The notes under the pieces were generated by a model. It was not told the DNA's origin. It searched no databases and saw nothing but the letters and a program-made list of their open reading frames with translations. The position numbers and the translations under genes are program-made. From Thermococcus sp. JdFR-02 (lineage in GTDB: Archaea > Methanobacteriota_B > Thermococci > Thermococcales > Thermococcaceae), in assembly GCA_002009975.1 (NCBI GenBank), contig MTLP01000009.1, positions 1 through 64,000 on the forward strand: 64,000 nt of DNA. Direction: 5' to 3'. Below are positions 49,578 through 51,816 of this stretch, piece after piece. Every line of letters starts with the position of its first letter. The stretch's first letter is position 1.

Positions 49578-50501
49578 ATGTGGAAGAAATTGCTAAGCTT
49601 GATGTTGGGGCTCCTTGTGTTGAGCATGACAGTAGGGATGGTAAGTGCGGCTAAGGTATCAAATGGACACAAAAATGCACTCTCCATAGAAATGCAGAAG
49701 AAAATTATAGAACAGTATTCCCGACTTAAAGCCAGTGGGAAAATAGAAGAAGCAAACAGATTGCTCTCAAAGCATGGATTTGTTAAGTTGGGAGAAGAAA
49801 AGATGCATCAAAAATTCAATAAACCCATCACCACAACACAGGAAAAGCTTAATTCTGATATCTCAATACAAAGCTGGGTCTCTGAAAGAGATTTAACTCT
49901 TGAAATAGAGTACATTGTATACCCCTCCTCTAAAACGGTGTTTATAGACTATTATTGGACGTGGGATTTAGTGGAAGATTACTGGGATCAGGGAGACGTG
50001 GATGAAATATCAATAACGAACGTGATAGGGCAGAGAATAAGTGGAGAAAGTTATTATAAAGTGATTGTTGATTTTATAGATGCATGGGGATATGAATTAG
50101 AGTGGGGAATGATACCAGGAAATCATGATGTAACCCTTGCCTATGATGTGCAAGCAGTTAACCAGAATGTGGGCACAGTAGAACATAGAATAATATTTAA
50201 AGCAGGAGATAGCATTCAAAAAGGCGTTATCCACGTAATGTACCGCATCCATGATGATGTATTTGGAGAAGGCGGAGGAATAAGTGCTCACATGATTTAC
50301 ACCCACACCTATGGCAATACTCAATTGGCAAGTACAGTTAGTGAAATTTCGGGAACTGTTGTCGGAATGCTATTTGAGAATCCAGTAACAGGGTATATAG
50401 TCTCTGGTACAGTAAAATATGCTGTCTACAACCTTATAGAAGAAGACGGAAAATGGACAAGTGAGTCTGTAGATAAATATGTCCAACTTCCGAGAGATTA
50501 A
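49578..50501 (+). CDS. Hypothetical secreted prepro-protein (candidate toxin)
   Basis: GGAGGTG RBS, signal peptide MWKKLLSLMLGLLVLSMTVGMVSA, basic pro-region, Gly-rich hydrophobic segment near the C-terminus. Confidence 0.75.
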   Translation: MWKKLLSLMLGLLVLSMTVGMVSAAKVSNGHKNALSIEMQKKIIEQYSRLKASGKIEEANRLLSKHGFVKLGEEKMHQKFNKPITTTQEKLNSDISIQSWVSERDLTLEIEYIVYPSSKTVFIDYYWTWDLVEDYWDQGDVDEISITNVIGQRISGESYYKVIVDFIDAWGYELEWGMIPGNHDVTLAYDVQAVNQNVGTVEHRIIFKAGDSIQKGVIHVMYRIHDDVFGEGGGISAHMIYTHTYGNTQLASTVSEISGTVVGMLFENPVTGYIVSGTVKYAVYNLIEEDGKWTSESVDKYVQLPRD

Positions 50502-50514
50502 AAGGGGTTAAAAA

Positions 50515-50916
50515 ATGCAGGTATTTAAACTGACTCCTAAAGAGAAGGAAAGGTTCATGAAGAATCTTCCCATTTTCTTTTTTTACTATTTGATACTCTT
50601 TGTGTTTTTCTGGTATGGACTTTCTCACAAGACTCCTGAGGAGATCAAGGGGGGACTTCCTAGGCCAACATCCATGCCGATAACTACGGTGATAGCACTC
50701 TTGATAGTCTTTTACCTGCGATGCAGAGATAATCCTAAAAAATGCATCACGGCAAAATCAGGATTCTTTGCAATTTTTGGATTATATGTGATGTATTTAA
50801 TTTCAGCCTATACAGGGAGCGTTGCTTTGCTTTTTATTATAACGCTTGTCCTAATATACATAAACACCTTAATACGTATCAAAGAAGAATTCAAGAGAAA
50901 AGAAAAACACTACTAG
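50515..50916 (+). CDS. Small 4-TM protein, paralog 1 (candidate immunity protein)
   Basis: FKLTP..ERF..LP..FYYL.LFV.FW shared with 51388. Confidence 0.75.
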   Translation: MQVFKLTPKEKERFMKNLPIFFFYYLILFVFFWYGLSHKTPEEIKGGLPRPTSMPITTVIALLIVFYLRCRDNPKKCITAKSGFFAIFGLYVMYLISAYTGSVALLFIITLVLIYINTLIRIKEEFKRKEKHY

Positions 50917-50986
50917 AAGAAGATTATGAAGACATGTATGGAACCAATGTGATGTCCCAGAGACTAAACATTGAGGAGGTTTAGCT

Positions 50987-51331
50987 ATGACAATTAAAAG
51001 GGATACTTTAAATGATTTTATTGGCTTTTCTTTTATTTATTTTCTTGTGTTCATTAGTGGATGGTATAGACTTTCTCATCCAGAAGAAATGTATTCTGCA
51101 TGGAGTATCTCATTACTCATAATGTTGATTATCTCGGTTCTTTATGAATTAACACCCTCTTCTGAAAGGCCGTACACTGGAACCAAACTGCTGGTCATTT
51201 TTGGTGTTATCTTGATGGAAGTAACTATCTATGTTATAAAGAATATTTACCTGCTCTTTGTTCTTGCAGTAATTTTCACTCATTTTTCTATCAAAATGAA
51301 AGCAAAGGAAAAGAGAAGTCAGGTATGGTAA
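50987..51331 (+). CDS. Small 4-TM protein, divergent paralog 2
   Basis: WYRLSHPEE versus WYGLSHKTPEE; IFG..M..LLF; GGAGG RBS. Confidence 0.7.
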   Translation: MTIKRDTLNDFIGFSFIYFLVFISGWYRLSHPEEMYSAWSISLLIMLIISVLYELTPSSERPYTGTKLLVIFGVILMEVTIYVIKNIYLLFVLAVIFTHFSIKMKAKEKRSQVW

Positions 51332-51387
51332 GATATAATGAAGCTTTAGGAATAATGTCTTAGCTGTTGCTAATGGAGGTGTAGCCT

Positions 51388-51816
51388 GTGAGGCTTTTTA
51401 AACTTACCCCTGATGAGGAGGAGAAGTTCTTTGAGCACCTTCCCCGTTTTCTCTTTTATTATTTATTCCTTTTTGTGATCTTCTGGGCTGCATTAGCTCG
51501 AAAATCAGCAGAGGAAATTAGGGAAAGAATCCTGAGTGGAGACGTTGCTCCTGACTTTTTGTACTCTACATTAATGGTTCTTTTATTACTTGCAATTACA
51601 GATGCATATCTAATGATAAAAGGGTATACTCGGTGGAATACGCCTGGAGCGGCACTTTTCATGGTTTTTGGACTTTTTATAATGCTCCTCGTGGTAATGT
51701 ATGTGGGAAGAGCTTTCATACTGTTTGTTGTAGCTCTTATTCTGGTTTACGTTAACACACTCATAAAAACAAAGGAAGACATAAAGCATTCATCAAAAGT
51801 AAAGCATCGTGGCTAA
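51388..51816 (+). CDS. Small 4-TM protein, paralog 3
   Basis: FKLTPDEEEKF..LP.FLFYYL; YVNTLIKTKE versus YINTLIRIKE. Confidence 0.75.
   Translation: MRLFKLTPDEEEKFFEHLPRFLFYYLFLFVIFWAALARKSAEEIRERILSGDVAPDFLYSTLMVLLLLAITDAYLMIKGYTRWNTPGAALFMVFGLFIMLLVVMYVGRAFILFVVALILVYVNTLIKTKEDIKHSSKVKHRG

Follow-up and report, generated by a model that had tools for sequence, protein, structure and literature searches.

The 64,000-nt stretch of Thermococcus sp. JdFR-02 analysed here in its whole length (contig MTLP01000009.1, positions 1 to 64,000 of the forward strand; hereafter the window) carries, at 49578..51816, a gene for a secreted protein of 307 amino acids (aa) followed by three genes for small membrane proteins, designated M1, M2 and M3. 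The original prediction for this locus, made from the sequence, had proposed a processed, membrane-targeting toxin acting between strains and accompanied by one cognate and two orphan immunity genes. In the reading favoured here, the locus is probably a polymorphic toxin-immunity cassette native to the Thermococcales. The features of the locus are as follows, the models being those of AlphaFold2 (AF2) with their confidence as predicted local distance difference test (pLDDT).

49567..49573, forward strand: Shine-Dalgarno-like GGAGGTG, read from the sequence; the blastn alignments to other loci start next to it
49578..50501, forward strand: candidate polymorphic toxin gene, 307 aa, an open reading frame (ORF)
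49578..49649, forward strand: Sec-type signal peptide, aa 1-24, ending in ...MVSA/A, as read from the sequence, with A24 invariant in the alignment
49650..49874, forward strand: basic N-terminal module, aa 25-99, in the AF2 model two helices paired as a hairpin, then a strand, then a disordered linker that closes with SDISIQSW
49875..50324, forward strand: conserved acidic core, aa 100-249, modelled as a beta-sandwich (AF2 pLDDT 79-96) and ending in YTHTYGNTQL, which contains the Y-x-H-T motif and is where the recombination breakpoint lies
50325..50447, forward strand: variable hairpin segment of type A, about aa 250-290, delimited by nucleotide identities, periodicity and AF2 pLDDT <50
50448..50501, forward strand: conserved C-terminal end G.W...D.Y[IV]QLPRD with the stop codon, pLDDT 80-86
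50515..50916, forward strand: M1, 133 aa, cognate immunity-like membrane gene for tail type A
50921..50967, forward strand: type-B relic before M2, identified by alignment as what remains, after a 17-nt deletion, of a toxin gene's 3' end
50987..51331, forward strand: M2, 114 aa, orphan immunity-like gene matching tail type B
51388..51816, forward strand: M3, 142 aa, orphan immunity-like gene matching tail type C

The comparison of the secreted protein with its close relatives revealed that, after an invariant Y-x-H-T motif, these proteins split into three tail types, A, B and C. Tail A was found in genomes G000, G064, G091 and G003, where the first downstream gene was of the M1 type (80-83% identical), and tail B in G079 and G009, where it was of the M2 type, the M2 of the window being 79% identical to that of G009 and 65% to that of G079. 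Tail C was found in G006, G007 and G052 (in the last one as the last toxin codons only), together with M3-type genes to which the M3 of the window was 76% (G006 and G007) and 71% (G052) identical. The tail type agreed with the type of the first downstream M gene in 9/9 tier-1 loci; that is, three hairpin types were seen, each with its own M type (A-M1, B-M2 and C-M3).

The sequence of the secreted-protein gene is a mosaic. Between loci of different type, nucleotide homology extended from 49566 to about 50324 (50318-50324), halted, and restarted precisely where the window has the M gene of the matching type. Over the variable 123 nt, identity was 98-99% within type A and 86% within type B, and 42-56% between types. 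For example, the variable part of the window gene was 99% identical to those of G064 and G091 and 51% identical to that of G079; the 5' third of the same gene was nearest to that of the type-B genome G079 (87%), with the type-A genomes G064 and G091 at 77% and 74%, respectively. A sliding window over 50280-50460 gave 97-100% identity across genera. These mosaic identities, together with the sliding-window identity, indicate that the variable cassette has been exchanged by recombination.

The 70-bp spacer between M1 and M2 preserves a remnant of a type-B tail. In G079 and G009, the counterpart of the relic at 50921..50967 is the region ...GHEGLWTTEPVDVYIQLPRD-stop (also given as ...LWTTEPVDVYIQLPRD-stop), that is, the 3' end of toxin genes of the type that M2 matches, and the same relic was present in G085. 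No clear toxin relic was seen before M3 in the M2-M3 spacer.

The three downstream genes begin 13 bp after the secreted-protein gene (stop at 50501, M1 start at 50515) and are co-oriented genes of 114-142 aa, just as had been described. Their proposed paralogy is confirmed by sequence comparison, M1 and M3 being 38% identical (E 3e-33) and M1 and M2 27% identical (E 8e-7), values well above what chance would give. Simple hydropathy, with two separate hydrophobic stretches and one long stretch of ~45 aa, fits the four transmembrane (TM) helices that were also expected of them. The M proteins are mosaic as well: M1 and M3 shared 58% identity in the N-terminal part, 21% in the centre, which comprises the end of loop 1, TM2 and loop 2, and 46% in the C-terminal part. 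Similarly, the M3 of G052 was 87%, 38% and 92% identical to the metagenomic protein P0032 in the N-terminal, central and C-terminal parts, which defines a fourth central type. This fourth type was observed in the metagenomic proteins P0032 and P0033, and a toxin tail to match it was not among the types seen. Other metagenomic contigs seemingly carry two M types (P0029 with P0031, and P0030 with P0037), as judged by shared contig sizes. The M3 protein of G006 is identical in every residue to one on record for Pyrococcus furiosus DSM 3638.

Purifying selection acts on the M genes. Relative to copies elsewhere, the ratio of nonsynonymous to synonymous divergence (dN/dS) was 0.24-0.26 for M1, 0.28 for M2 and 0.16-0.17 for M3, so the orphans M2 and M3, both intact in the window, stand at 0.16-0.28 against the copies that are cognate in other genomes. 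The corresponding ratio of changes (pN/pS) was 0.33 for M2, and for M3 it was 0.16 between G006 and G007 (Fisher p 3e-4), in both of which the toxin gene is broken, and 0.20 between G006 and G052, where the toxin genes are broken or deleted. The retention of M after the loss of its neighbour was also seen in the state of the genes: of 18 loci with context, 10 had an intact toxin gene and 8 a broken or deleted one, and at 7 of these 8 loci the adjacent partner ORF was undamaged, the remaining one (G091) being nearly so. The toxin lesions were diverse, comprising premature stops (G091, and a stop codon in G029), an internal deletion (G003), frameshifts (G006, G001, and inside the signal peptide in G009), the reduction of the gene to its last ~85 codons (G007), and the fusion of signal-peptide codons to the last few codons (G052).

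Regarding the secreted protein itself, the most likely start is the ATG at 49578 (MWKKLLSLMLGLLVLSMTVGMVSA/AK), which has GGAGGTG 5 nt upstream and coincides with the place where the homologues begin, nucleotide homology to other loci starting at 49566; a longer ORF from a TTG at 49455 is probably unused. The predicted Sec signal peptide was borne out by the sequence, by a hydropathy peak at aa 3-28 that is the only TM-grade segment of the protein, and by conservation in the homologues, the signal peptide and the TM helices being judged here from sequence and simple hydropathy. The basic region ending in SDISIQSW and the acidic beta-rich domain noticed at first sight were likewise recovered, with net charges of +6 for the N-terminal module (aa 25-99) and -16 for the core (aa 100-247) and with a beta-sandwich in the AF2 models. 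In the N-terminal module, helices were modelled at 37-52 and 56-65 (pLDDT 80-97), followed by a linker at 81-103 (pLDDT <50). The module is separable, because the distant homologues P0013, P0016 and P0021 lack it. This would suit a pro-region without proving one, and it is the only support for the proposed processing after ISIQ.

Two AF2 models were obtained, one of the protein from 14 sequences (mean pLDDT 63.5) and one of residues 100-307 from 25 sequences (mean pLDDT 73.8; predicted template modelling score, pTM, 0.74). Both the core, aa 100-247, as a confident beta-sandwich, and a variable segment at about aa 248-289 with pLDDT <50 were distinguished. The residues Y241, H243 and T244 of the core are invariant in the alignment, as are G291 and W293 of the conserved end, which in the window protein reads ...KYVQLPRD. 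This end, aa 290-307 (pLDDT 80-86), is modelled as strands at model positions 193-195 and 199-204 that run back into the sandwich, and the variable segment would therefore be an excursion between two scaffold strands. The Gly/Val-rich segment (ASTVSEISGTVVG...) pointed out originally is present, but it belongs to a ~42-aa excursion with helix-like periodicity, internal and flanked on both sides by conserved strands, and not to a C-terminal domain. The two arms of this hairpin flank a near-invariant Pro..Gly turn, and their hydrophobic periodicity peaks at 90-100 degrees (mu100 of 0.24-1.46 and mu170 of 0.2-0.7 in tier-1 arms), which indicates that the arms are amphipathic helices. An alternating-beta (stem) reading of the tail was dropped, since the periodicity analysis favours amphipathic helices.

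Variation at the ends of the protein was observed in more distant relatives. Those of tiers 2 and 3a (L026, L027, L030 and L034) continue beyond the LP motif into a conserved tail, ...LPPGALS..., and the most distant ones (P0015, P0016 and P0021) have a C-x(4-5)-C motif and then PTK at the end; both could be sorting or processing signals. At the other end, two different secreted proteins encoded on one contig of G064 (L038 4023-4721, reverse strand, and 628-1548, reverse strand) have identical first 22 residues, the signal peptide, and similar signal peptides occur on other unrelated secreted proteins near several loci (e.g., L023 5492-6322 and L026 10321-11151). The DNA of the signal peptide may thus serve as a shared recombination handle.

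The layout of a cognate gene followed by orphans was repeated in a distant subfamily whose secreted proteins are 25-29% identical to the window protein. In G082 and in a second locus of G079, toxin X is followed by partner X (167 aa) and then by a split copy of partner Y, and in G095 toxin Y is followed by an intact partner Y (178 aa). In fact, in every subfamily examined, a small polytopic membrane gene was found directly after, or overlapping, the secreted-protein gene. Homology of M to the partners of tiers 2 and 3a was not detected (hhalign probability ~1%). Between L031 (G082) and L033 (G079), which belong to one genus, neither the tier-3b toxin nor its 167-aa partner differs at all in protein sequence (100% identity), and this identity points to a very recent transfer or to shared ancestry.

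These data fit a polymorphic toxin-immunity system best, because of the covariation of tail and M type, the mosaic gene, the relic, the selection on M, the retention of M after toxin loss, the replicate of the layout in the subfamily, the patchy distribution, the modelled place of the variable segment between two sandwich strands and the operon layout. The predicted arrangement of one cognate and two orphan immunity-like genes, with a polymorphic module and a patchy, mobile distribution, is strongly upheld as an architecture by the covariation, the mosaic breakpoint, the type-B relic and M retention. In such a system, the 307-aa candidate toxin would be exported by Sec, and the ~41-aa hairpin displayed on the beta-sandwich would be its specificity element, most likely membrane-active. 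The M protein encoded directly after it would act as the antidote: the variable region of M, from the end of loop 1 across TM2 to loop 2, would bind the hairpin of the matching type, either at the membrane or within it, and so neutralise it. The window toxin would carry a hairpin of type A with M1 as its cognate, M2 and M3 being orphan immunity genes against types B and C made by other Thermococcales, and from the presence of M1, M2 and M3 in one organism, resistance to all three tail types seen would follow. Cassettes would be exchanged by recombination, with one crossover in the Y-x-H-T-Y-G-N motif and the other past the M gene, and this exchange would leave behind displaced immunity genes and 3' relics of toxin genes. 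The mosaic structure, the covariation, the relic and the selection on M are observations; toxicity, neutralisation through binding, attack on the membrane and processing are inferences.

The separate elements of this reading deserve different degrees of confidence. The general assignment made at the outset is probable. We give roughly even credence to the fuller proposal that this toxin-immunity system arose in hyperthermophilic archaea, with the specificity of a ~41-aa hairpin read by the TM2 cassette of a four-helix M protein, with both exchanged between genera and with immunity genes being collected. More tentative, and somewhat doubtful, is the proposal that the hairpin acts as a membrane-permeabilising warhead.

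Several results weigh against the toxin-immunity reading. A recognisable toxin domain was not found in the secreted protein or in its variable module (Pfam, NCBIfam, PADLOC, PHROGs and PDB sequences). The arms of the hairpin are moderately hydrophobic (mean Kyte-Doolittle 0.3-1.0) and were not picked up as TM segments. In the fold searches of the two models (Foldseek and VIA-wide) no family stood out, the core being a generic immunoglobulin (Ig)-like sandwich, and an adhesin-like role is equally compatible with the fold because the scores of adhesins (Z 9.2-9.8) and of staphylococcal and clostridial pore-forming toxins (Z 8.5-9.6) tie. Among the RNA runs, none was listed as containing the locus. 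In G079, an intact type-B toxin gene lies beside an M2 gene that is frameshifted by one inserted nucleotide near codon 84, although an intact 113-aa M2 (P0036) and a type-B toxin (P0003) each have a longest contig of 4710 bp, and this equality of contig size alone suggests that the two are co-located. The comparison of the M1 genes of G064 and G003 gave a pN/pS of 0.97, based on only 10 changes. The excess of lesions in toxin over partner genes, 8:1, was not significant once gene length was allowed for (binomial P 0.196), and the tier-1 loci are related by descent, so that counts across loci are not independent; for these two reasons, the case for M function rests on dN/dS.

The main rival is a non-killing, allele-specific pair for self/non-self recognition or adhesion, in which the hairpin of a secreted or surface protein would be a ligand, M would be its receptor on kin cells, and extra M alleles would widen the range of partners. 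Such a pair is suggested by the likeness of the core to Ig-like adhesin, pilin and cohesin domains (VIA Z 8-9.8) and by the lack of a toxin domain in the libraries searched, and the covariation of two adjacent polymorphic genes is also typical of ligand-receptor identity systems. Moreover, the same alternative is raised, in the available extracts of the source, for the analogous Thermococcales module VARTIG (PMC8416519). However, the persistence of an intact receptor gene under purifying selection after the loss of the ligand gene is more natural for an antidote, and receptors for types that the cell does not make itself would bring no obvious benefit unless non-recognition were penalised. This explanation is considered unlikely.

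A second alternative is a protein of the envelope or cell surface for which M would serve as dedicated membrane anchor or help in assembly. Its exposed loop would have been diversified under pressure from viruses or other parasites, for example through receptor variation, the extra M genes being functionless leftovers of cassette replacement. Its adhesin-like fold, the broken state of 3/5 orphan second or third M copies (those of G006, G007 and G009), the decay of 8/18 toxin-family genes, as expected of dispensable surface genes, and the toleration of a frameshifted partner gene in G079 would all suit such a protein. On the other hand, the orphans of the window are intact with the low dN/dS given above, the partner is intact in G052 despite the complete deletion of the secreted-protein gene, no relative was found in viral contigs or plasmids, and within a type no part of the gene is better conserved than the variable segment (98-99% at the nucleotide level across genera), which is the opposite of continuous diversifying drift. 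Since partners survive the loss of the secreted gene and stay under selection, an anchored surface protein is the less likely reading and a rather improbable one.

The weakest alternative, a beta-barrel pore-forming toxin of the alpha-hemolysin/leukocidin class in which a Gly/Ser/Thr-rich excursion would be a pre-stem becoming a TM beta-hairpin, is very unlikely, for although the ~42-aa excursion between two sandwich strands is pre-stem-like, the top Foldseek matches of the first model were leukocidin and gamma-hemolysin prepores (E 6e-5, probability 0.9) and VIA Z reached 9.6 and 9.1 for NetF, 8.9 for gamma-hemolysin, 8.8 for alpha-hemolysin and 8.5 for CytK, the Foldseek TM-scores to pore-forming toxins were only 0.15-0.26, Ig-like adhesin domains scored as high or higher (Z 9.2-9.8), the Leukocidin family of Pfam gave no match at E up to 1, and the periodicity of both arms was 90-100 degrees and not the ~170-180 degrees of a pre-stem.

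As for the mode of action within the toxin-immunity reading, pore-forming colicins offer a model: these are secreted toxins in which a hydrophobic or amphipathic helical hairpin attacks the membrane, and their immunity proteins, small and of 3-4 TM helices, recognise that hairpin within the membrane in a type-specific manner. By analogy, the most likely mechanism would be the action of the hairpin on the membrane, neutralised by the TM2 region of M. The Thermococcales toxin and M1-M3 have no sequence relation to the colicin system (no Pfam match), the scaffold is modelled as a beta-sandwich instead of a helical bundle, and domains for outer-membrane receptor binding and translocation are absent. 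In Proteus, the adjacent polymorphic genes idsD and idsE encode, respectively, an exported protein whose variable region binds allele-specifically to a small membrane protein, and that small membrane protein, delivery being made by type VI secretion. The Thermococcales locus has no sequence or fold relation to IdsD/IdsE, and it differs in that orphan copies accumulate and partners outlast the exported protein.

Bacterial polymorphic toxins, such as CdiA-CT/CdiI and Rhs, are described in the available extracts of PMC3482391 as having a conserved exported N-terminal part, a variable module past a demarcation motif, a downstream immunity gene and orphan cassettes, and as generally absent from most archaeal lineages with the exception of some methanoarchaea and haloarchaea. 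The Thermococcales locus shares with them an exported N-terminal signal, a variable module past YTHTYGNTQL, a covarying downstream gene, orphan genes and spread by recombination and lateral transfer. In contrast, the Thermococcales protein has Sec as its only export route, without filament, RHS or repeat stalks and without a dedicated secretion system; its module is an internal hairpin of ~41 aa in which no toxin domain is recognisable, and not a C-terminal enzymatic domain; and both of its families are new and restricted to archaea. A shorter parallel is Tox-WTIP, a proteobacterial two-helix pore-forming module with RxxR and W-x-[ST]-I-P signatures according to the extracts of the same source (PMC3482391). 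In both, a short, non-enzymatic module predicted to form a two-helix hairpin is, or in Thermococcales would be, the part that varies and carries the toxicity, but RxxR and W-x-[ST]-I-P are missing from the Thermococcales hairpins as read from their sequences.

A parallel in concept is VARTIG, the one comparable module of the Thermococcales. The available text of PMC8416519 centres it on arCOG07710 proteins, which are >500 aa long, contain CARDB-like Ig domains and have a D[ND]NxxxG[GD] (DNNxxxGG) motif at the C-terminus, and gives no identified toxin or mechanism. As far as that text goes, VARTIG resembles the present locus in its restriction to Thermococcales, its patchy distribution and recent acquisition, its upstream secreted beta-sandwich with a recombining variable region, its subfamily-specific small membrane proteins downstream, and the same three functional hypotheses (PMC8416519). 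The window protein differs from these published features in its length of 307 aa, in the absence of a CARDB match in Pfam at E up to 1, and in its end, QLPRD. By these defining features the locus is not a VARTIG module, and the parallel is one of concept.

Protein-mediated conflict between archaea is almost unexplored. If the toxin-immunity reading is true, the locus would be the first native protein-toxin warfare system of the Thermococcales and a minimal, swappable toxin-antidote recognition code operating near 100 degrees C. It would also supply a membrane-active module that withstands heat, a system in which to study how toxin and immunity protein recognise each other inside membranes, and a marker of strain-level competition in vent communities. 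The determinants of specificity are small and sharply delimited, ~41 aa of the secreted protein and ~40 aa around TM2 of M. Natural variants provide controls, including producers with an intact toxin gene (G000 and G064, and also G079, where M2 is frameshifted), immune non-producers such as G006, and many genomes with neither gene. Genetic systems exist for Thermococcales, and therefore the question of toxin and immunity is directly testable.

Both families are tiny, with matches only from Thermococcales. The secreted-protein family was found in 17/97 family genomes, covering all 6 genera, and the M family in 13/97; between genera, the identity of the secreted protein reached 77-88%, in keeping with the patchy presence across Thermococcales that had been anticipated. 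In larger collections, the secreted protein had 6 relatives in 5.8 billion protein clusters and, by a profile search of 1.84 billion representatives, 16 at E up to 1e-3, and the M family had 18 clusters among the 5.8 billion, all of them annotated as 'hypothetical'. In its own genome, the toxin gene is single-copy and the only M-family matches are M1-M3 of the block. The first reading had recognised no named family, and the library searches agreed with it: Pfam, NCBIfam, PADLOC, PHROGs and PDB sequences yielded nothing that matched the secreted protein or M1-M3 significantly. In Pfam and NCBIfam, the best E-values of M1-M3 were 0.006-0.5, to unrelated domains of unknown function (DUFs), with no colicin-immunity family among them, and the ESM Atlas yielded only unnamed Bacillota clusters (score 0.91), which were uninformative. 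A scan of genome contigs returned only three loci, from metagenome-assembled genomes, all already in the genome-search set. No relatives were found in viral contigs or plasmids, and an origin from a mobile element is thus unsupported.

In the literature on archaeal polymorphic or pore-forming toxins, no description of the family was found, the 2019 mBio survey of archaeal toxins lying outside this comparison. For PF0684, PF0683, PF0682, OCC_10234, PNA2_1721 and Q8U2Z4, nothing relevant appeared among the matches listed, and a bioRxiv preprint on bacteriocins in archaea deals, in the portion available, with subtilosin homologues and not with the toxin-M locus.

The surroundings of the locus in the window comprise the following features.

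47220-48164: thiL
48165..51905: variable island of ~3.7 kb between thiL and the HTH_10/ABC-2 operon
48355-49302, forward strand: orphan gene of 315 aa, upstream of the toxin gene
51836..51857, forward strand: T-rich run past the M3 stop codon, read from the sequence, likely the end of a four-gene transcription unit
51906-54880, forward strand: HTH_10 (helix-turn-helix) regulator and three-gene ABC-2 (ATP-binding cassette) exporter, with a DrrA-like ABC ATPase and two ABC-2 permeases, between M3 and amrS
54942-55988: amrS

The island thus holds the orphan gene and the toxin-M1-M2-M3 block. Within the block all genes are co-oriented with intergenic gaps of 13, 70 and 56 bp, an SD-like (Shine-Dalgarno-like) site precedes each of the four genes, and T runs were not seen in the M1-M2 and M2-M3 spacers. 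These sites and spacers, together with the T-rich run after M3, make the four genes look like one transcription unit. The block had been placed between thiL and amrS; both do flank the region, though not directly, because the 315-aa gene, HTH_10 and the ABC-2 genes intervene. In G077 (L049) the island is absent, the HTH gene standing immediately after thiL and the ABC operon after that, and in G093 (L046) the ABC ATPase comes directly after thiL. Since thiL adjoins the HTH/ABC genes in these two genomes, the ~3.7 kb of the window are an insertion. G085 (L047) has a decayed island at the same thiL/HTH site, with a 3' remnant of M1 along with the type-B relic mentioned above. The same decayed island also contains a nucleotidyltransferase/HepT-like pair (PF01909 and PF01934) and an 861-aa secreted protein without a Pfam family (G085 features at L047 6127-6787, forward strand, and 2855-5440, reverse strand).

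The HTH/ABC-2 operon is present in 49/97 family genomes, and toxin-family genes or M remnants adjoin it in six genomes (L030, L034, L037, L047 and L048 among the loci). They lie upstream of the operon in G000, G015 and G085 and downstream of the second permease in G001, G032 and G048. This proximity may mean either that the site is a hot spot of recombination or that the operon is linked to the system in function, for example by exporting the protein or by giving added protection. In G015, a gene for a CPBP/Rce1-like membrane protease (L037 4829-5443, reverse strand; PF02517, E 7e-12) was observed, with the remnant of a broken M3 on one side and the HTH/ABC operon on the other. The CPBP/Rce1-like family often has links to bacteriocin immunity.

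The 315-aa orphan protein begins with a hydrophobic stretch, either an anchor or a signal, and contains Cys in its C-terminus, and no Pfam or NCBIfam family was assigned to it. Kinship of the toxin to this gene was rejected on sequence comparison. The orphan occurs in 5/97 family genomes, and among these only G000 also carries a tier-1 toxin gene. With regard to metagenomes, the DNA contigs X2 and X3 are identical to the window, and X5, a run from a vent metagenome, contains toxin A and M1 in a variant of 90-95% identity, with no cover over M2 and M3, and also a diverged copy of the 3' part of the 315-aa orphan gene.

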